Source of the DNA: a virus
Reading direction: 5' to 3' (one strand)
Length of the DNA: 15,862 bases
UHGV virus genome: UHGV-0076425
The notes under the pieces are model-generated. The model did not search any database. It was not told the origin of the DNA and saw only the letters and a list, made by a program, of their open reading frames with translations. Position numbers and translations under genes: made by a program. Numbering within the stretch: position 1 is the first letter of the stretch; each line of letters starts with the position of its first letter. Positions 2,141 to 11,170 of the stretch are shown here, one piece after another.

Positions 2141-2899
2141 TCATTGATTCACCTCCTGCCTGTCGTCCGGCATTCGCTCACTACAGCTTATCCAACCATC
2201 CGGAGTTACCGGAGAGTTGCCCGATAGTGCATTCTGCTCCAGTGATGCTTTTACAAACCACGCTGCCTGAACTATAACGCCATGAATCCAGCGCAAATCA
2301 GCATCGCGATCTTTCTTTTTCATCTTTTCGCCACTTAAGGCCTTGCTTATGTGGCTGCGTACCAGGTCTTCATGTAATTCCTTCGCCTCCTCAATGGTGA
2401 AACCACCAGGCAGAAGAGCCGGAGTTACCGGAGAGCTGGTTGACGCTTCCGGGATTTCCCGAAAATTATTGGTTGACGAATTCTTGCTTTCCCGAAAGTT
2501 TCCGGACTGAAGCATGGCGGTGCGGCAGGCGTTCCATATTTCGGCAGCAATATCGCGCTCGCTATCGGTTAATTTGTACGTGGAAACATAGCCAGAGAGC
2601 ATTTCTACGTTTTCCGGAGTTGCTTCTTCCGGCACTACCGGCGCTGGCGGGGCGGCAAATAGATATCCGCCAAAGTCAGGAAGCTCTCCAATGGCCTGTA
2701 CGAACTTTTGTTTGCCTACGTCAACTCCTAATGGGTAATGAGCTATAATCTTTGCCACCGGCTCTGCTTCCAGCGATACCAGTGCAATTCGTGCCAGTTC
2801 TTCCGCTTCTTCTGCTGGCAGTACAACGTTGCTACCCGGTCCGTATGTTTCGCGCCACTGCTTGATTGTCAGCAGTCGCCCTTTGGTAATAGTGATCAT
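2141..2899 (-). CDS. Hypothetical phage protein with internal sequence duplication (SPVTP repeats); C-terminal WIS...P motif reminiscent of DUF551
   Basis: 252 aa ORF; start ATG overlaps the stop of the upstream gene (ATGA); contains a 17-bp exact direct repeat at 2200..2216 and 2419..2435. Confidence 0.6.
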   Translation of the reverse strand: MITITKGRLLTIKQWRETYGPGSNVVLPAEEAEELARIALVSLEAEPVAKIIAHYPLGVDVGKQKFVQAIGELPDFGGYLFAAPPAPVVPEEATPENVEMLSGYVSTYKLTDSERDIAAEIWNACRTAMLQSGNFRESKNSSTNNFREIPEASTSSPVTPALLPGGFTIEEAKELHEDLVRSHISKALSGEKMKKKDRDADLRWIHGVIVQAAWFVKASLEQNALSGNSPVTPDGWISCSERMPDDRQEVNQ

Positions 2900-3411
2900 G
2901 CCGCGTTTCCTTCTTTCTTATTAACAATCACACCGTCATATATTTCATTAAGGTGCCCTCTCAACTCCATGCGCCTTAATGCAGATAACATGTAATCGCA
3001 TTCAACCTGCTTATTCCCAGTAAATGGCTTATCGTCAGGATTACCCCAACAGCAATTACCCCTGGGCCATCCATGTACTTTCCGTACTCTTCCGTTAACA
3101 ACGTGAAGTAATCCCCAGCCGGGAGGTAAATCCTCAACTGAAATAATTTCCGGCTCACTAATAAAGAATCGCCAGTCGCCCATGCCAAGTGAGGGATTTT
3201 TACGGAAACGCTTTTTTCTATCTGCCAACAAGTCAGCACGAGAACACTTCGCCTCTATCAGGCATGATGCTGAATTTCTGAATCCCATAGCATCTGGCTG
3301 TTCTCCGGTACTGGTTACAGCAACAAAGCGGTCATAAAAGCAAACCTTGAACCCGTTGCGCTTAAGGAACTTGTACGCAATCTGACAGAGTTCGTGGTGT
3401 GTTAACGCCAT
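2896..3411 (-). CDS. Putative PD-(D/E)xK-type nuclease-like protein
   Basis: Track ORF 2896..3444; the ATG at 3411 is preferred because AAGGAGAG lies 6 nt upstream. Motif PD-x15-IEAK fits the PD-(D/E)xK catalytic signature; Cys/Trp-rich C-terminal segment. Confidence 0.5.
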   Translation of the reverse strand: MALTHHELCQIAYKFLKRNGFKVCFYDRFVAVTSTGEQPDAMGFRNSASCLIEAKCSRADLLADRKKRFRKNPSLGMGDWRFFISEPEIISVEDLPPGWGLLHVVNGRVRKVHGWPRGNCCWGNPDDKPFTGNKQVECDYMLSALRRMELRGHLNEIYDGVIVNKKEGNAA

Positions 3412-3961: not shown

Positions 3962-4197
3962 TGGTTGCCTCCTTTACGGATCTGCGCTGCGATGCACGAA
4001 AAAAAAGACTTTCGCGTATGACTGTTAAGAGCTGGCGCGAACGCCGCGTTAAGAACGGCGGCATCACAGCCGTCATCGATATAGAGCGCAATTTTTTTCT
4101 CCAGGCGTGCTTTGGCTTCCTGCAACTGCATATCCCGGCACGCACGCGGGATATACTCAGCAATTTGAGCGATAGATTTTTCGTTCTGTTTAAACAT
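3958..4197 (-). CDS. Hypothetical small phage protein (79 aa)
   Basis: ORF overlaps its neighbours by a few nt on both sides, consistent with an operon; no recognisable domain. Confidence 0.45.
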   Translation of the reverse strand: MFKQNEKSIAQIAEYIPRACRDMQLQEAKARLEKKIALYIDDGCDAAVLNAAFAPALNSHTRKSFFSCIAAQIRKGGNQ

Positions 4198-4393
4198 GCT
4201 TCACCTCGATAGGCTTGATGGTATCGATCAGCAGTCGGCGGCGAGTATTTTCTGCAAAGTGGCGGCGTCCGGTTTCTTTGTGGTAAAACTCGTTTTTTCC
4301 GACGACCCACATCCGCTTTGTCTGGTGCAGTTTTTTTACCTGCGGACCGTCTCGGGTGATAACAATTCCTGTATGAGTTTTTATCACGCTCAT
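4190..4393 (-). CDS. Hypothetical small basic phage protein (67 aa)
   Basis: ATGA overlap with the upstream gene stop; basic composition; no recognisable domain. Confidence 0.45.
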   Translation of the reverse strand: MSVIKTHTGIVITRDGPQVKKLHQTKRMWVVGKNEFYHKETGRRHFAENTRRRLLIDTIKPIEVKHV

Positions 4394-4752
4394 TTTTTAT
4401 TCTTCGGTGCTTTCGGCATTACTGCCCAGTGAGTGATATTGACGTTTTCAAGGTCCCCGACCTGAAATGTCCACTGCCATTCTCCGGTTTCTTTTTGTCC
4501 CCAGGTGTACCAGAGAGAACGCCAGCCAATCAGCCAGCCTTCTCCATTAGCATCAAATAACAGAACACTTTCATTTGCTGGCGGCAGTTCAGCTGACACT
4601 GGTATTACTTTGTTTTCCAGTGCTGTACATTTAGCTTCAAGCGCATCGAATTTACGTACCAGGTATTCAGCATCTGTTTCATTCACTTTCAGATCTCGCG
4701 GTACACATCTCCCACGAAGAAACCCTTCCATTTCGAAAACATTCATGCGCAT
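4390..4752 (-). CDS. Hypothetical phage protein, DUF551-like C terminus (THW..P.P)
   Basis: 120 aa ORF; the second in-frame ATG (4746) overlaps the stop of the HD gene (ATGA) and may be the true start; Trp-rich C-terminal motif. Confidence 0.55.
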   Translation of the reverse strand: MRMNVFEMEGFLRGRCVPRDLKVNETDAEYLVRKFDALEAKCTALENKVIPVSAELPPANESVLLFDANGEGWLIGWRSLWYTWGQKETGEWQWTFQVGDLENVNITHWAVMPKAPKNKK

Positions 4753-5279
4753 TTGCGTAACTCCGATAACTCGTTAAAACGTTCCATAAACATCCCGTAG
4801 GCATGGCCCGGTGCCTGTGGAATCACTTTGAACATCTCTGTTGCCGGGATACCTTCCAGTACAGGCCAGAAAGAGCCATCATCAAGCCCGAGATCGCGGC
4901 GTTCGGTTGCCAGCATAATGAGATCGGCATATTTCACTGGCGTGCTCATAACAGGAGGTAACCCGTATTTCTCACGGATTACGGCGTCTATTTTTTCTTC
5001 CATCCGTTTATAGTCAGGAAGAAGGCGTTTCAGTGGAGCAGGGATGTCCTGGCAATACGCTTCTGTTGCATCATGCATTAACGCTTCAAAAGCAAATTCC
5101 TGCGGTACCAGCTGGCTGCAAAGCACCGCATGTTGGGCGACGCTGTAGAAGTGCGAAAGATGACCGGCAAAGCGACAGATATTTGAAAGGGAAACCGCGA
5201 TATCGTTAATATCGATGTCGTCTTTATTTATCTTGTCATAATAAAAATGTTTCCCGGAAAAAGTCTTAATAAATGACAT
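4743..5279 (-). CDS. HD-domain metal-dependent phosphohydrolase
   Basis: Track ORF 4743..5348; the ATG at 5279 is preferred (GGAGAA Shine-Dalgarno 7 nt upstream). Motifs H..H (HLSHFYSVAQH) and HD (MHDATEAY) plus a downstream Asp match the HD superfamily metal-binding pattern. Confidence 0.7.
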   Translation of the reverse strand: MSFIKTFSGKHFYYDKINKDDIDINDIAVSLSNICRFAGHLSHFYSVAQHAVLCSQLVPQEFAFEALMHDATEAYCQDIPAPLKRLLPDYKRMEEKIDAVIREKYGLPPVMSTPVKYADLIMLATERRDLGLDDGSFWPVLEGIPATEMFKVIPQAPGHAYGMFMERFNELSELRKCA

Positions 5280-5321: not shown

Positions 5322-5371
5322 ATTGCAGCAATCCAGCCCATTTGACATGGGATGATTGCTGCAATTTTTTT
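5322..5371. other. Perfect 12-bp inverted repeat (ATTGCAGCAATC / GATTGCTGCAAT) with nested 5-bp stem, followed on the plus strand by T7
   Basis: Read directly from the sequence in the 90-bp gap between the rdgC-like stop and the HD gene start; looks like a plus-strand intrinsic terminator, or an mRNA hairpin or protein-binding palindrome. Confidence 0.5.
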
Positions 5372-6287
5372 AAGTTGTTGGATTTTGGCTTTTATCTTCT
5401 TTGTAAGAAAGAAGGTCACACATCAAATTAACTACCTTGCTGAATTGGAAAAGGTCAGTGCCAGTCTGATGACGCCACTGGAATGCTTTATCATCTTCAT
5501 CATTAAATGTCTGAGATTGAGTATTGATGCGCGAAAAATGGAAATTTTCGGTAAGAATGAAGGTCACACCGCAACCGGATAACTCCATTTTATCAGCAGT
5601 GAAACTACTACTAAGGCTATCGGCCAGTTCGCTTTGAATTGACTCATGCTCAGCTGAGTAGCGAATAATTTCCTTTTGATCTGCGTAGCGTGATAGCTGA
5701 ATATAATTCCCGACAGTGAATCCTTCAAATGCATTGGCTGCACCATTGATGTAGTTCTTCAGGCGTGTAGTCAGTCCATTCTTGATATCACTGATGTTGA
5801 TTGTTTCTGTTTTTACTGAACCGACAACCTTAATCAGCATTGCGCATACCATACCGGCTATTATTTTATTGGTTGTGTTGATTACCAATAATTTCTCATC
5901 AGTGCTGTACAATACAAGAATCAGCGTAGACTTAACAAATGCCTGTTTGCATAGATCTACTCGTACGTTATCAATAATGGCCAGTCGTTCGGCACGCTTT
6001 AATTTATTCCCGGACATATTTTCGATTGTTTGGATTCGAGAATTAGCTTCTTTCATGACGACATGTCGGGGAATTATTTTCTGATCATGACGGATTACCA
6101 TTGCGTACCCACCAGATATCGGAGTTACCAGTTCACCAGTGACAGGATTCTCTACAAAAGAGGACCGTGAAAATTCTGTTTCCCCGATTTCAGAATAAGG
6201 GAGTTCGAGAAGATGCCCTTCAATAGCCTGTATACTAGGTAATGTTGCTCGGTACACAATTGCGTTACGAAATTTTGGTAATTTCAT
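5370..6287 (-). CDS. rdgC: RdgC-like recombination-associated protein
   Basis: Track ORF 5370..6443; start chosen at the ATG at 6287 (GAGGAAAA Shine-Dalgarno). This gives about 305 aa and an N terminus MKLPKFRNAIVYR that parallels E. coli RdgC (MLWFKNLMVYR); the longer ORF would run through the upstream terminator and hairpin. Confidence 0.7.
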   Translation of the reverse strand: MKLPKFRNAIVYRATLPSIQAIEGHLLELPYSEIGETEFSRSSFVENPVTGELVTPISGGYAMVIRHDQKIIPRHVVMKEANSRIQTIENMSGNKLKRAERLAIIDNVRVDLCKQAFVKSTLILVLYSTDEKLLVINTTNKIIAGMVCAMLIKVVGSVKTETINISDIKNGLTTRLKNYINGAANAFEGFTVGNYIQLSRYADQKEIIRYSAEHESIQSELADSLSSSFTADKMELSGCGVTFILTENFHFSRINTQSQTFNDEDDKAFQWRHQTGTDLFQFSKVVNLMCDLLSYKEDKSQNPTT

Positions 6288-6321
6288 TCTATTTTCCTCT
6301 GCACAAGATATTAGTTTCTCC

Positions 6322-6410
6322 ACAAAACAGAGAAGAACACCTGCGGTGGCAGCCGCCCGGATGGATTGGGTTATGAGCCCGTCGTCCGGTGATGCTCTTC
6401 TCTGTTTTGT
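6322..6410 (-). promoter_or_regulatory. Long-range perfect 15-bp inverted repeat (ACAAAACAGAGAAGA ... TCTTCTCTGTTTTGT, 59-nt spacer) immediately upstream of the rdgC ribosome-binding site
   Basis: Seen in the sequence; would form a large stem-loop in the leftward transcript between the leader terminator and the first early-left gene. Confidence 0.5.
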
Positions 6411-6457
6411 AAAAAGAGCGGTACCAGCCGGAAGCAAGGGCACAAACTGGTACCGCC
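6411..6457 (-). terminator. Intrinsic terminator within the leftward leader (tL-like)
   Basis: Minus-strand RNA: GCGGUACCAG, 20-nt loop, CUGGUACCGC, then UCUUUUU; 10-bp GC-rich perfect stem with a U-tract. Confidence 0.55.
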
Positions 6458-6878
6458 AAAGCAGTGGCTGTTGTGGTGACCGGTGCTGATCTCCGGCTTG
6501 CGGTTATTTCAGACTCTCACGGGCGTTTAATTGCCCCGCCGAACAGCTCTTTTCCGCAATAGCTGCAATGTCTTTCGCGCATCAGCCTGCGCATTCACCA
6601 CAACGCTGAGAGCACTTAGCCAGTTACGGCACCACACTTTGTCGCGGTTCCATAAATGCCCTCATCGTTGCACCCTGGTCTCTTCCAAGGTGTCAAACCG
6701 AACCGCCACGCTGGTTAGGCGTCTTATCAGCATCATCATTGCCTTGCACATTCCGGCTACCTGGTTTGTTTGCTCGAGCAAGGAGTGGATTGTCCCCTTT
6801 AACGTCACCAGACCGCTAACGACGCATGTGCCATACGCCGTGTTACAACCAAATTTTGTTTTAATCTTGCCTGTGTTA

Positions 6879-6905
6879 TGTTTCTTTTAGATACATTATG
6901 TATCT
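6879..6905. promoter_or_regulatory. Left operator: 17-bp palindrome AGATACATTATGTATCT overlapping a TGTAT-N7-GTACA site
   Basis: Dyad symmetry seen in the sequence; the half-sites match the two TGTAC-N7-GTACA sites in the cro-repressor intergenic region; sits in the spacer and -10 of the leftward promoter. Confidence 0.6.
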
Positions 6906-6912
6906 CATGGGT
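6885..6912 (-). promoter_or_regulatory. pL-like leftward early promoter
   Basis: Minus strand -35 TTGACA (6912..6907), 16-nt spacer, -10 CATAAT (6890..6885); immediately downstream of the repressor terminator, as pL is placed in lambda. Confidence 0.6.
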
Positions 6913-6916
6913 ACAT

Positions 6917-6937
6917 TGTCAAGTATAAAAAAACCTG
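6917..6937 (-). terminator. Intrinsic terminator of the repressor gene
   Basis: Minus-strand RNA: CCUGC-UUCG-GCAGG followed by U7, about 25 nt after the repressor stop codon. Confidence 0.7.
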
Positions 6938-6961
6938 CCGAAGCAGGTTCATAAATATTGA

Positions 6962-7636
6962 TTAGGCCTTTATTGTGTATCTTCTTGGTTTTCCCGAGAA
7001 AATCACTGTACCAATTATAGAGCAATTACCGTTAATCTTAATGTAAGGCTCAGGCCAGTTTGGGTTTAATGCTTTGAGATAACGCTGTGTTCCATCTTCT
7101 ATCAATCGCTTGAAGGTGGTTTCGCCTGTATCGTGCATCAATGCAATAACGTCGTCACCGTGGCAGGCAGGGACTTCGGGATCAACAAAAATCATGTCTC
7201 CAGGGCGGTACTCATCAATCATTGAATCACCAATCACCCGCAAGATATAAGTCATTTCGCCACAGGGTACAGGGCAGGGATACGTTTCTGCTGTGCTCAA
7301 ATCAACCTCAGAATAGCCAACTTCTTTCCATGCTCCGGCCTGTACCCATGATATGACAGGGACTAACGTTATTTGTTTGTTAGTGATTGAAACATCAGGT
7401 TTTTTTGTGATGTTCGTTGTCTGGTGTTCTTGATCAAGCCATCCGACAGGCAGGTCGAAACATTTTTCGATGTGCCGTGCCATGCTGTCACCGATATTTT
7501 TAGTAGCGCCATCCCCCATAAACCTGCTGGTTTGGGTTGGCTCGCGATCAATCATGGTGGCAAAGGATGAATTTCCGCCAACACCATCTCTCAGTTTTCT
7601 GGCGTTAGACCGCCGGATGTCATGGATTGTTTTCAT
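6962..7636 (-). CDS. cI: CI-like prophage repressor with C-terminal S24 (LexA-type) autopeptidase domain
   Basis: 224 aa; C-terminal GDSM (Ser nucleophile) and a downstream Lys; candidate RecA-stimulated cleavage site VQAG-AW paralleling lambda CI VQAG-MF; divergent from the cro-like gene. Confidence 0.9.
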   Translation of the reverse strand: MKTIHDIRRSNARKLRDGVGGNSSFATMIDREPTQTSRFMGDGATKNIGDSMARHIEKCFDLPVGWLDQEHQTTNITKKPDVSITNKQITLVPVISWVQAGAWKEVGYSEVDLSTAETYPCPVPCGEMTYILRVIGDSMIDEYRPGDMIFVDPEVPACHGDDVIALMHDTGETTFKRLIEDGTQRYLKALNPNWPEPYIKINGNCSIIGTVIFSGKPRRYTIKA

Positions 7637-7653
7637 AACGAAATTAAAACCTT

Positions 7654-7720
7654 TGTACCGATAAGGTACAAGTATCTTGAAGGTTCATTTCAATCATGTA
7701 ATATGTACACCGGAGGTACA
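7654..7720. promoter_or_regulatory. Right operator region: two TGTAC-N7-GTACA sites (7654..7670 and 7704..7720)
   Basis: Two perfect copies of the 17-bp dyad in the 90-bp divergent intergenic region; the second overlaps the -10/start of the rightward promoter. Confidence 0.65.
7677..7704 (+). promoter_or_regulatory. pR-like rightward early promoter
   Basis: -35 TTGAAG (7677..7682), 16-nt spacer, -10 TAATAT (7699..7704); GGAGG Shine-Dalgarno follows before the cro-like ATG. Confidence 0.45.
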
Positions 7721-7958: not shown

Positions 7959-8528
7959 ATGAGGCTAACCGTGGGTAAGTATCACTGGAAAGTAGAAAAA
8001 CAGCCTGAGTGGTACGTGAAAGCTGTCAGAAAAACTATCGCAGCGTTGCCGGGTGGTTACGCTGAAGCAGCTGACTGGCTGGATGTAACAGAAAACGCAT
8101 TATTTAACCGCCTTCGTGCCGATGGCGATCAGATTTTCCCGCTGGGATGGGCAATGATTTTGCAACGTGCTGGTGGAACTCACTTCATTGCTGACGCTGT
8201 GGCGCAGTCTGCAAATGGCGTCTTTGTGTCTCTTCCTGACGTCGAGGATGTGGACAACGCCGATATTAACCAGCGTCTGCTGGAAGTCATTGAACAGATC
8301 GGCAGTTATTCCAGACAGATTCGTTCAGCAATCGAAGACGGTGTAGTGGAACCGCATGAGAAGACAGCAATTAACGACGAGCTGTACCTCTCAATTTCGA
8401 AGCTCCAGGAGCATGCAGCACTGGTCTACAAAATCTTCTGCGCTCCAGAAAATAGTAACGCCCGCGAGTGTGCAGCTCCGGGCGTCGTGGCGTCGATTGC
8501 TTCTGGTTGTGGAGAAACTAACGCATGA
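7959..8528 (+). CDS. CII-like regulator (YdaT family) candidate
   Basis: 189 aa ORF second in the rightward operon; family assignment from position and memory only; alternative GTG start at 7971 has a better GAGG Shine-Dalgarno. Confidence 0.45.
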   Translation: MRLTVGKYHWKVEKQPEWYVKAVRKTIAALPGGYAEAADWLDVTENALFNRLRADGDQIFPLGWAMILQRAGGTHFIADAVAQSANGVFVSLPDVEDVDNADINQRLLEVIEQIGSYSRQIRSAIEDGVVEPHEKTAINDELYLSISKLQEHAALVYKIFCAPENSNARECAAPGVVASIASGCGETNA

Positions 8529-9673
8529 ATAGTTTAACGGCAAATAACCGTTTGTCGCAACAGCTGGTGGTCAGCGTCGCTGAACACCTGTTGTTACGGC
8601 ATGAATGCAGATTACCAAATCACCTGGCTGTAAGTAACCACAGAGAACTTTACCTGACTGTGGGGGGCGAGTTGTGCAGGAACTTAACCGCTGGTTTCGT
8701 GACGGAAGAGGACTTTATGTTCATGTTATTCGTTGGGAGCCAGAAACACAGCGCGTTATCTATCTTCGCAAAGACTACCAGCATGAGTGCTTTAGTCCTT
8801 TGTGGAAATTCAGGCGTGATTTTGTTGAGTGTGAAGGACCACCAGCACATTGATTCTGCCATTCCGGGACGTTACACTGTTCAGGCACCTTATAAAGCGG
8901 GTGTCGGGATTGGCGTCCTGGAATTGCATACGGCGACAATTGGCGCGTTAGCGTCTTTTTTGTTGCTACAACTCAGCTATACCCAAATTATGGTGGGCTG
9001 GGTGGGGGCACCGAAAGGTGCGCCGGTTTCCGTATGCGCCGGTTACGCCAACCCTGCTCAGTTCACCACCAGCGAAATTGGCGTTTCCGGTGGTGGAAGT
9101 TATCCATTGCATACGGAGGCTGCCATCATGGCTACGATCCCAACCCTCACTCAACCTGAAATTGCCATCGTTGATGGTCAGGCTGTTACTTCATCCCTGG
9201 CTGTTGCCAACTTCTTCTCCAAACGTCATGACGATGTACTGAAAAAGATCCGCACGCTTGAATGTTCCGCATCATTCACTGCCCGCAATTTTTCGGTGAG
9301 TGATTACACCGATTGCACAGGCCGCAAACTACCTTGCTATCAAATAACCCGCGACGGCTTTGCGTTTCTTGCTATGGGTTTCACGGGTAAACGTGCTGCC
9401 CAGTTCAAAGAGGCATACATCAATGCCTTTAACCAGATGGAAAAACTGCTTTCAAAGCCATCCACGCTGAGCGATGCCGCAGATAACGCCAGCGTGCTTT
9501 ACTCCCACCTGTCGGTAATCCACAAGGTCTGGCTGCAGCAGCTTTATCCCATGTTGGCAAAAGCCGAATCCCCGCTGGCTGTAAGTCTGTATGACCGCAT
9601 CAACGACGCGGCGCTACTGGCCAGTCTCATAAATTTGTCGCTGAACCCTTCAGAGGTAAGGGGGCGCAAATGA
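8525..9673 (+). CDS. Rha-family phage regulatory protein; true start uncertain (alternative ATG at 9128)
   Basis: Rha-domain signature (VTSSLAVANFFSKRHDDVLKKIRTL...) lies at residues ~205-300 of the 382-aa ORF; Rha domains are normally N-terminal, so the ATG at 9128 (GGAGG 8 nt upstream) may be the real start. The upstream 600 nt are stop-free in this frame and the ATG at 8525 overlaps the preceding stop (ATGA). Confidence 0.55.
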   Translation: MNSLTANNRLSQQLVVSVAEHLLLRHECRLPNHLAVSNHRELYLTVGGELCRNLTAGFVTEEDFMFMLFVGSQKHSALSIFAKTTSMSALVLCGNSGVILLSVKDHQHIDSAIPGRYTVQAPYKAGVGIGVLELHTATIGALASFLLLQLSYTQIMVGWVGAPKGAPVSVCAGYANPAQFTTSEIGVSGGGSYPLHTEAAIMATIPTLTQPEIAIVDGQAVTSSLAVANFFSKRHDDVLKKIRTLECSASFTARNFSVSDYTDCTGRKLPCYQITRDGFAFLAMGFTGKRAAQFKEAYINAFNQMEKLLSKPSTLSDAADNASVLYSHLSVIHKVWLQQLYPMLAKAESPLAVSLYDRINDAALLASLINLSLNPSEVRGRK

Positions 9674-10190: not shown

Positions 10191-11170
10191 GCCGTTACGC
10201 CCCCACACCGGAAGTTATGGCTATTGGTCAAATTAATATTTCCGGCAATGTTACACCTGCGACCTGGTGGAAATATATTCGACTACCCAGTGGGCGTCCG
10301 GATGCGACGGCTATCGCTCTGCTTTCAGAGATCGTTTACTGGTACCGCCCGACAGAGGTCAGGGATGAGCACACCGGAGCGTTGCTGGGATATCGCAAGC
10401 GTTTTCAGGGCGACAAACTGCAAAGAAGCTACCAGGCGTTTGCTGAGCAGTTTGGTTTCGGGAAAAGGGAAACCGCAGATGCGCTGAAGCGTCTCCGTGA
10501 TGCCGGGTTTATTACTCTGGATTTACGCACGGTGGAAATGCTCGATGGGGTGAAATGTAGCAATATTTTGTTTGTCGGGATCAACCCACAGGCAATTGCG
10601 GCCATCACCACACCTTCTTCTGTTTCGCCAGAAAGTAACAGCAATAATGCAATCAGCGATACAGCTATTACGTTAAAACGGAACACCCCCCGACGTCGTA
10701 ACGGAACAGGGGATACGCCGAATGTTGATACAAATACAGAGATTACTACAGAGATTACAACGGAGACTAAAAACACTATTGGCGCATCCGCTGACGCGTC
10801 TGCACCAGCGCGTTCTGCCCGACAGGAATATTCACCGGAATTTGAACAGGCCTGGCAGGAATATCCCAAACGTGCTGGTGGTAATTCAAAATCCGCCGCT
10901 TTTAAAGCCTGGAAAGCCCGAATCAGGGAAGGTGTGACACCTGAAACCATGCTCGACGGTGTGAAACGCTATGCCGCCTGGGTGCGTGTCTCTGGAAATA
11001 CCTGTACCCAGTTCGTGAAGCAGGCGTCGACGTTCTTTGGTCCGGATCGTCATTTCGAAGAATCCTGGGAAGTTCCTGCGGTATCTGCAGCCAGACGCGA
11101 GGACCCGTACTTCAAAGCCAGTTACGACAACGTGGACTACAGCCAGATCCCGACAGGATTCAGGGGGTGA
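10187..11170 (+). CDS. Putative phage replication initiation protein
   Basis: 327 aa; strong AAGGAGG Shine-Dalgarno; occupies the position of the replication initiator after the cro/cII-like genes; two-domain layout with a repeat-containing linker (TEITTEITTETK). Function assigned by position and general resemblance. Confidence 0.5.
   Translation: MSRYAPTPEVMAIGQINISGNVTPATWWKYIRLPSGRPDATAIALLSEIVYWYRPTEVRDEHTGALLGYRKRFQGDKLQRSYQAFAEQFGFGKRETADALKRLRDAGFITLDLRTVEMLDGVKCSNILFVGINPQAIAAITTPSSVSPESNSNNAISDTAITLKRNTPRRRNGTGDTPNVDTNTEITTEITTETKNTIGASADASAPARSARQEYSPEFEQAWQEYPKRAGGNSKSAAFKAWKARIREGVTPETMLDGVKRYAAWVRVSGNTCTQFVKQASTFFGPDRHFEESWEVPAVSAARREDPYFKASYDNVDYSQIPTGFRG
10736..10771. repeat. 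Three tandem 12-bp repeats (ACAGAGATTACT / ACAGAGATTACA / ACGGAGACTAAA) inside the putative replication gene
   Basis: Seen in the sequence; located in the inter-domain linker, which is where the ori iterons sit in lambda O. Confidence 0.4.

Follow-up and report, generated by a model that had tools for sequence, protein, structure and literature searches.

Conserved structured RNA modules in the pL leader of a lambdoid prophage without an N-like gene

The leader between pL and rdgC

The window analysed here, a 15,862-nucleotide (nt) stretch of the virus genome UHGV-0076425, contains the immunity and early region of a lambdoid prophage, and this study concerns the leader that separates its early leftward promoter, pL, from rdgC, the first gene of the early-left operon. 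The original prediction described this interval as a leader that lacks an N-like gene and carries an intrinsic terminator and a perfect hairpin, and proposed RNA-based or factor-dependent control of early-left expression; its observations hold with corrections, and its interpretation is partly supported. Four conserved RNA modules, encoded on the minus strand, make up the leader: M1, a hairpin followed by a tRNA-like cloverleaf, a terminator, and the junction element M3b. Every element is conserved in many other phages with compensatory changes, and two of the four folded elements apparently lack a prior description. What had been taken for a hairpin loop, together with the 420 nt upstream of the terminator, is made up of conserved structured RNAs that the original prediction missed.

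The repressor gene cI (6962..7636, minus strand; an S24 repressor, Pfam Peptidase_S24) is followed by an intrinsic terminator (6931..6950, minus strand) that is formed by an 8-base-pair (bp) stem and TTTTTAT. The anticipated pL-like promoter is present on the same strand (6922..6895) and matches the sigma-70 consensus at 11 of 12 positions (TTGACA at -35, 6922-6917; a 16-nt spacer; CATAAT at -10, 6900-6895). Two 17-bp operators with the dyad TGTAY-N7-RTACA (OL1, 6899-6915; OL2, 6879-6895; jointly 6879..6915) overlap the pL spacer, the -10 element and position +1, and two further copies of this dyad lie between cI and cro (oR; 7654-7670 and 7704-7720). Because the OL dyads match both oR operators, pL is, as judged from its sequence, controlled by the CI repressor. 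The pL sequence also co-varies with immunity type, and mEp460, which has a different cI, departs from the window at pL.

The transcription start site (TSS) is expected at approximately 6888. As predicted, the first left gene starts at 6287, where an ATG is preceded by the Shine-Dalgarno sequence AGAGGAAAA (6287..6300, minus strand); the gene (5370-6287) encodes an RdgC protein (Pfam RdgC, E=1.6e-30, match from residue 6). It is followed by genes for YfbR-like, DUF551 and Ead/Ea22-like proteins, and then by xis (1419-1655) and int (50-1363), as assigned with Pfam. The leader is therefore about 600 nt long from TSS to ATG and not about 420 nt, as the distance of about 430 nt reaches only to the terminator. 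Its G+C content is 51%, as compared to 40% for the genes to its left. The prediction had proposed RNA folding as a check, and the leader fold (-221.9 kcal/mol) is indeed far more stable than those of shuffled sequences (z = -4.7).

A query of phage records with the leader matched 177 records and revealed a mosaic, in which separate blocks match different groups of phages. The M1 block matches P1 and P7 directly after tRNA-Ile and ahead of ban, and in epsilon15-like Uetakevirus phages, among them phiV10 and SPN1S, its match immediately precedes tRNA-Arg. The block containing the terminator and hairpin is shared with SfII, SfIV and phages of Salmonella and Klebsiella. Of 5426 complete E. coli genomes, 2724 contain some part of the leader and 462 contain no less than 80% of it; no annotated feature lies beneath any of the leader matches listed in these genomes.

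Structure and distribution of the RNA modules

M1 is a pseudoknotted RNA of about 180 nt (6666..6846, minus strand; 189.6 bits with covariance model R1) that lies 47 nt from the TSS, upstream of the leader terminator. It contains five helices and a pseudoknot in which the NACC loop of P4 pairs with GGUN located 12 nt downstream. In the window, M1 includes the P1 hairpin (6841-6819), the closing pairs of P2 (6811-6808 with 6764-6761), the invariant junction GUAGCCGGAAUGUGCAAG (6760-6743), P4 (6722-6708), whose AACC loop (6716-6713) forms the pseudoknot with GGUU (6699-6696), and P5 with its GAAGAGA loop (6690-6674), all on the minus strand. In an alignment of 35 distinct sequences, 97.3% of the cells are paired in this fold, as compared to 27-48% when the pairing partners are slid, and compensatory changes occur in 14 of the 27 pairs. 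These include the pseudoknot, which was absent from the search model, and in which a C-G pair is replaced by A-U in six of the 35 sequences. The segments between the helices are essentially invariant (GUAGCCGGAAUGUGCAAG, GGCGAUNCGGUGUGAC and the GAAGAGA loop), with unpaired stretches of 16-18 nt that stay invariant in phages of three unrelated types and in more than 12 genera. M1 and M3b, described below, are genuine structured RNAs. Scanned at permissive E-values, the leader yields only chance-level matches in Rfam 15, M1 has no counterpart there, and a literature search with its invariant strings found nothing. By eye, the GGUAGC in the M1 junction was considered as an ops/RfaH-like element and set aside, as it has only 8 of 12 matches and the C3:G8 pair is lost; a reading of the GGA motifs as CsrA sites, of which only two are present, was likewise set aside.

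Homologs of M1 were collected with a 22-mer from its invariant core, from phage records, and from the genomes of 24 enterobacterial species. The core 22-mer is found in at least 120 viral contigs, and M1 is present in genomes of Kosakonia, Citrobacter, Klebsiella, Phytobacter, Buttiauxella, Erwinia and others. It occupies three contexts. In lambdoid phages (11 species) it follows cI at a distance of 113-980 nt; the Uetakevirus copies stand first in a unit of reverse orientation that separates portal from terL; and in P1-like phages M1 is located between trnI (tRNA-Ile) and ban. The Uetakevirus unit contains M1, the P6 hairpin, a cassette slot occupied by tRNA-Arg(UCU), and the terminator, such that the whole arrangement recurs outside the lambdoids. 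M1 is found once in the window (6846-6666), and the pR side lacks a copy. Among 80 other leaders of the M3b type, only six contain M1, which argues that it is optional cargo and not a read-through device. In prophages of Phytobacter ursingii (our loci L147 and L167), the pL leader carries M1 and, about 440 nt later, a true tRNA-Ile; real tRNAs can therefore occupy lambdoid leaders as well. Two DUF551 genes (4390-4752 and 2141-2899, minus strand) lie downstream of M1 in the window, and the unit of the Uetakevirus phage Tyrion also has a DUF551 protein gene downstream of M1 (2817-3059 of its locus), which may be a coincidence.

M1 is followed by the linker hairpin P6 (6601..6670, minus strand; -33.4 kcal/mol), in which CAACGAUGAGGGCA pairs with UGCUCUCAGCGUUG around a variable insert. 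Its stem covaries between loci as judged by eye (GAGAGCA/UGCUCUC, AAGAGCA/UGCUCUU, GAGAGUA/UACUCUC, AAGGGUA/UACCCUU and GAGCGCAC/GUGCGCUC). P6 leads into a slot that is closed by GUUGUGG...CCACAAC, and that contains one of the cloverleaf cassettes A, B, C or D, or a true tRNA-Arg(UCU), depending on the locus. The window carries cassette A, a 135-nt tRNA-like cloverleaf in its minimum free energy fold (6470..6604, minus strand). It is formed by a closing stem in which GUUGUGGUGA (6604-6595) pairs with UCACCACAAC (6479-6470), a D-like hairpin (6592-6577), a long central arm, and a T-like hairpin (6497-6479), all on the minus strand. The acceptor-like stem of cassette A begins where the acceptor stem of the Uetakevirus tRNA-Arg begins, and its D-like loop GGCUGA(U) is complementary to its T-like loop (A)UCAGC. 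The loop sequences GGCUGA and UCAGC co-occur, as both are present in 15 cases, only one of the two in 4 and 1 cases, and neither in 49. Some slot cassettes retain a canonical T-arm sequence. ARAGORN detects no tRNA in the window and is negative for cassettes A, B and C even with the intron and tmRNA options, and the Rfam tRNA model has no match in the leader. Cassette A is tRNA-like, but it is not a tRNA; we regard it as tRNA-derived. An integron attC-like reading of GTTGTGG/CCACAAC was discarded, as the core sites stand in the reverse order.

Relatives of cassette A are found among tRNA genes, with copies that are 96-97% identical in the tRNA arrays of P1-like phages and in the Klebsiella siphovirus IME207. 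In Klebsiella phage 6991 (1001-1130 of our locus L133), the outer arms of cassette A are kept and the centre is different; IME207 and 6991 are both virulent Klebsiella siphoviruses. In IME207, a cloverleaf of the cassette A type lies just upstream of tRNA-Ser and tRNA-Arg(UCU) (1501-1923 of locus L006), and matches of about 40 nt to its 5' part occur in many siphoviruses of Klebsiella, Salmonella and E. coli, as well as in Ackermannviridae. In the P1 isolate OP279344 (2278-4345), tRNA-Asn and tRNA-Thr are followed by cassette A (2501-2649), then by another GUUGUGA...CACAAC cassette and a sub-threshold STnc100 match (3206-3326), and, right after tRNA-Ile, by M1 (4158-4345; locus L134), none of which is annotated. 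As seen in this isolate and in P1 mod749::IS5, the leader of the P1 ban operon is an array of the same RNA modules. The possibility that positions 274-422 of the leader query simply correspond to the P1 tRNA-Asn and tRNA-Thr genes was excluded by the alignment, and in other P1 isolates the match lies 70 nt downstream. In RCS47, the sequence matching cassette A is labelled 'putative lipoprotein Plp'.

The intrinsic terminator was found where the original prediction had placed it (6411..6457, minus strand; -23.3 kcal/mol). It consists of an 11-bp GC-rich stem (GGCGGUACCAG...CUGGUACCGC, 6457..6418), a structured loop and a U tract with the sequence UCUUUUU (6417..6411), and its activity in vivo is a prediction. 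A terminator follows the slot in most loci, and it occupies the corresponding position in nearly all related leaders, as well as after the Uetakevirus tRNA-Arg; no other convincing intrinsic terminator was found in the left operon. The 10-mer GCGGTACCAG occurs exactly four times in the window (5102-5111 and 6418-6427 on the plus strand; 6447-6456 and 10339-10348 on the minus strand) and once more with one mismatch, as compared to about 0.5 matches with at most one mismatch expected by chance. Two of the copies are the arms of the terminator, and the other two lie within genes.

M3b is a 96-nt three-way junction (6319..6414, minus strand; -51.2 kcal/mol). The perfect 15-bp arms with 59 nt between them that had been reported as a simple hairpin have exactly the predicted coordinates (6410..6396 and 6336..6322). 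They belong, however, to a longer helix of about 25 bp, whose core they form and on which the junction stands, and the supposed loop holds two apical hairpins with a conserved GACGGGCUCAUAACCCAAUCCA. By chance, approximately 1e-3 perfect inverted repeats of 15 bp that fit within some 100 nt would be expected in 15.9 kb. RNAalifold analysis of 12 diverse sequences yielded 33 pairs, nine of which show compensatory changes, and G.U pairs arise only when M3b is read as a leftward transcript. The 3' arm does not abut the rdgC ribosome-binding site as had been claimed, but ends 21 nt ahead of the Shine-Dalgarno sequence. M3b is present in at least 120 further viral contigs and directly follows a terminator U tract in every case. 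It is the element that stays constant where the mRNA proper begins, and most M3b leaders also contain P6 and a cloverleaf. The anatomy, conservation and covariation of the leader, its lack of coding sequence and the repressor control of pL are what the sequence analysis shows.

Coding potential and comparison with known systems

The leader does not code for protein. It contains 14 open reading frames (ORFs) of at least 20 amino acids (20-119 amino acids, both strands), eight of which were included in a scan against PHROGs. In agreement with the original prediction, there is no N-like gene, as no ORF is conserved and no N family was detected among the eight ORFs scanned. Its statement that minus-strand ORFs do not exceed 36 amino acids has to be amended, as ORFs of 56 (6289..6459) and 48 (6662..6808) amino acids exist when GTG and TTG starts are allowed; neither is conserved or matches a family. 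The only PHROGs match among the scanned ORFs was obtained with a 47-amino-acid antisense ORF on the plus strand (6346-6489; phrog_3651, E=1.9e-27), a family without an assigned function. The match spans only positions 88-127 of the 162-position profile, and the ORF is truncated in the window. The 119-amino-acid plus-strand ORF (6531-6890) and the other small ORFs were rejected as genes, as they have no family match and are closed in homologs. The length differences among M1 homologs are not multiples of three, no reading frame is open across the homologs, and in six of them every one of the six frames is interrupted by stops. Antisense ORFs are annotated over the leader as mEp460_036/037, SfIV_35/36 and a hypothetical protein of Ayreon, and cdtI also annotates hypothetical proteins here. 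These ORFs and phrog_3651 appear to be ORF calls over conserved RNA and not real genes, such that some phage records mis-call the leader region as hypothetical proteins. The leader peptide raised as an option in the original prediction fares no better. The only tidy upstream ORF (uORF) encodes 13 amino acids (MRAFMEPRQSVVP, 6665-6624) and was rejected, as it lies on the 5' strand of the covarying P6 stem, whose variable insert is replaced wholesale elsewhere; three of its four differences from a phiV10-like phage, in comparison with which it had seemed conserved, are synonymous.

The original prediction also suggested a cis-acting antiterminator like HK022 put. As in HK022, a structured RNA closely follows pL in a lambdoid phage that has no N, and the P1 hairpin of M1 resembles put stem I in having ACGGCG...CAUGCGUCG and a G.U pair at the same position, a local likeness that is the only link between the two. 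HK022 put, which suppresses terminators in cis by way of the beta' zinc-binding domain of RNA polymerase, is an element of about 70 nt with two stem-loops that is present in both early operons, whereas M1 is about 180 nt long, has five helices and a pseudoknot, occurs in single copy, is optional, and stands beside tRNAs in non-lambdoid phages. A covariance model built from seven put sequences (R2; HK022 putL and putR and put relatives) recovers putL and putR at 95.4 and 44.5 bits, respectively, but has no match in the leader or in the M1 loci at E<=10 with filters off. On these grounds, and because there is no pR-side copy of M1, an HK022-type put element was rejected.

The leader also differs from the lambda N/nut system, as the first gene behind pL does not encode an N-family protein. 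The window alone has CGCUCUU, which could be taken for boxA, in the tail of its terminator; at this site, relatives carry CGCCCUU, GCACCUU or CGACCUU, and the boxA reading was rejected for this lack of conservation. No boxB-like 15-nt hairpin follows CGCUCUU. The lambda N leader carries nutL and an RNase III hairpin upstream of N, and in both leaders a long helix stands just ahead of the ribosome-binding site for the first gene behind pL. The lambda leader differs in having the N gene, boxA and boxB, of which the window has neither the gene, a conserved boxA nor a boxB, and RNase III cleavage in the present leader is proposed by analogy.

A likeness is found to the small RNA (sRNA) STnc100 (RF02076), which has a closing stem UGGUGAAU...CACCA, an abutting terminal hairpin, a spacer and a terminator. 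By inspection, cassette A has this architecture, although its internal arms differ. In SfIV, where the slot is likewise followed by this terminator and M3b, the cassette can be aligned over the full length of the Rfam STnc100 model as far as the shared terminator (38.4 bits). Loci L247 and L287 behave as SfIV does, and these cassettes score 35-38 bits, as compared to the STnc100 gathering score of 47. STnc100 and PasD are related prophage sRNAs, and members of the Pas family are bound by Hfq as determined by RIL-seq (bioRxiv 10.64898/2026.05.13.724894). PasD genes are located near the late-region genes Q and lpxR, and STnc100 is commonly flanked by genes of the Fels-1 prophage (bioRxiv 10.64898/2026.05.13.724894); unlike the slot cassettes, neither RNA is placed behind pL in that preprint. 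The rnaC and rnaD genes of T4 (species 1 and 2 RNAs) provide a second parallel, as they specify tRNA-like RNAs of 120-140 nt without an assigned function that lie in line with tRNA genes. They differ from the window RNA, which is located in a repressor-controlled leader ahead of protein genes, and rnaC retains a canonical T arm that cassette A lacks; at the sequence level only chance matches of 7-8 nt were found.

An Rfam scan of the whole window identified only C4 and isrK, both outside the leader (8885-9073, plus strand), at 80.7 bits for the C4 antisense RNA and 58.9 bits for isrK, each above its gathering score. They fall within an ORF of 382 amino acids (8525-9673) that matches Pfam Phage_ASH at residues 117-212, the part that corresponds to the RNA genes, and Phage_pRha at residues 222-307. 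By analogy with the P1-style immI module (c4-icd-ant), the real Rha-type antirepressor gene probably begins after C4.

Interpretation of the leader

The elements of the leader are RNA, as the original prediction of RNA-based control supposed, and of the options that it listed a small RNA ending at the terminator is the best fit. The terminator closes a conserved unit of M1, hairpin and cloverleaf that is free-standing in Uetakevirus. This unit acts as an RNA gene, as it stands alone, rides in tRNA arrays, swaps its cargo and has its own terminator, and for this reason a small-RNA function is favoured. We give roughly even odds to an explanation in which the first product of pL is a small RNA, structured and tRNA-like, whose end is set by the terminator, the genes from rdgC to int require read-through, and M3b is a processing or 5' untranslated region (UTR) element. 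The pL transcript of this interval, about 600 nt long, untranslated and repressed by CI, would then be an RNA operon ahead of the early-left genes. After derepression, the polymerase would transcribe M1, P6, the cloverleaf and the strong intrinsic terminator in turn. Most transcripts would end there, giving either a stable, structured product of about 470 nt or separate M1 and cloverleaf RNAs released by processing, an output that may be the counterpart of the tRNAs, STnc100-like sRNAs and other stable RNAs found in the same slot of related phages. Only read-through transcripts would reach rdgC-int, and on these M3b would fold as a three-way junction on its helix of about 25 bp, acting as a processing, stability or translation element that frees the structured RNA and sets the rdgC 5' UTR. 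RNase III, acting at the long M3b helix, would be the obvious candidate for this step by analogy with the lambda N leader.

Several points weigh against this explanation. STnc100 and PasD are seen in uninduced cells, whereas pL is repressed in lysogens, and no internal promoter was found in the leader. The STnc100 model has no match at E<=10 in the window between positions 6250 and 6960. The efficiency of termination, the processing and any trans-acting role of the RNAs are features that we infer. A terminator of -23 kcal/mol ahead of int and xis is awkward when no read-through device is known, and the long invariant single-stranded segments of M1, as well as its position near the 5' end, would also suit a cis-acting modifier of RNA polymerase.

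That last point leads to an alternative that we consider unlikely, in which N is replaced by a processive antiterminator RNA acting in cis, namely M1 and/or M3b, with a role like that of put and a different fold. The nascent RNA would bind the elongating host RNA polymerase and carry it past the leader terminator and any Rho-dependent sites. The phage is without N, and phages of this group are reported to lack N, with a put-like mechanism having been speculated (PMC12315714). M1 is close to the TSS and ahead of the terminator, following cI in lambdoids and heading the unit of Uetakevirus, and its unpaired segments are invariant in more than 12 genera, which points to a host partner. The resemblance of the P1 hairpin to put stem I and the constancy of M3b at the start of the mRNA can also be counted in its favour. 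However, the put model finds no match even with filters off, M1 is single without a copy on the pR side, and it is missing from 74 of 80 other leaders that have the same terminator and M3b. In P1 it stands in the middle of an operon directly after a tRNA. M3b is transcribed after the terminator and therefore cannot rescue it. We give only a modest chance to the idea that M1, perhaps together with M3b, represents a new class of cis-acting RNA that is directed at the host, has a fold unrelated to put, and would load onto the transcribing RNA polymerase, or onto another conserved host machine, where phage transcription units start.

It is improbable that the leader is a conformational attenuator or sensor, in which a ligand, tRNA or protein bound to M1 or the cloverleaf would decide folding, processing or termination. 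Such a switch would find its elements in GUUG (6604-6601), which can pair either with CAAC at 6670-6667 to extend P6 or with CAAC at 6473-6470 to close the cloverleaf, in the recurrence of the CACAAC...GUUGUGG...CCACAAC triad in relatives, and in the riboswitch-like pseudoknot and invariant junction nucleotides of M1. Yet the terminator hairpin has no evident competing partner, covariation does not separate the two GUUG pairings, Uetakevirus has a complete tRNA between M1 and the terminator, and no likeness to any Rfam riboswitch class was found. There is very little likelihood that the region is conserved DNA without an RNA function, composed of recombination scars, tRNA relics or a mobile element with the inverted ends GTTGTGG...CCACAAC. 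Its mosaic distribution, with modules occurring singly at 96-98% identity in unrelated phages, the T-arm relics in some cassettes, and the 7-bp inverted repeat flanking the slot could be explained in this way, but compensatory changes preserve the helices and the pseudoknot, the G.U pairs fit the transcribed strand only, the modules keep their order and their orientation with respect to promoters, and the region is kept in the E. coli genomes counted above. A hidden protein, whether an N-like protein or leader peptide on the minus strand or the product of the plus-strand ORFs of 119 or 47 amino acids, is highly improbable. The hypothetical proteins annotated in mEp460, Ayreon, SfIV and cdtI, the E-value of the phrog_3651 match and the synonymous differences in the uORF would fit it. 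They are countered by the stops in all six frames and non-triplet length differences of M1 homologs, by the location of the uORF on a covarying stem with a freely variable insert, by the partial profile match of a truncated ORF, and by the absence of a PHROG match, including any N family, for every other ORF scanned.

At least two well-supported RNA structures described here are absent from Rfam 15, and one of them, M1, is also present in P1 and in epsilon15-like phages. The analysis also links the Hfq-associated STnc100/PasD family to a wider set of tRNA-derived cloverleaf cassettes that exchange with tRNA genes at a fixed slot. The leader bears on how the early-left genes are expressed in lambdoid phages without N, such as SfV, ST64B, cdtI, 2H10 and the mEp460 group, for which put is excluded by this analysis, as searched with R2 in the leader and the M1 loci. 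If M1 were a host-directed cis RNA, it would represent the missing early antitermination system of this large group, and the same RNA would also work in P1 upstream of ban and in the epsilon15-like phages.

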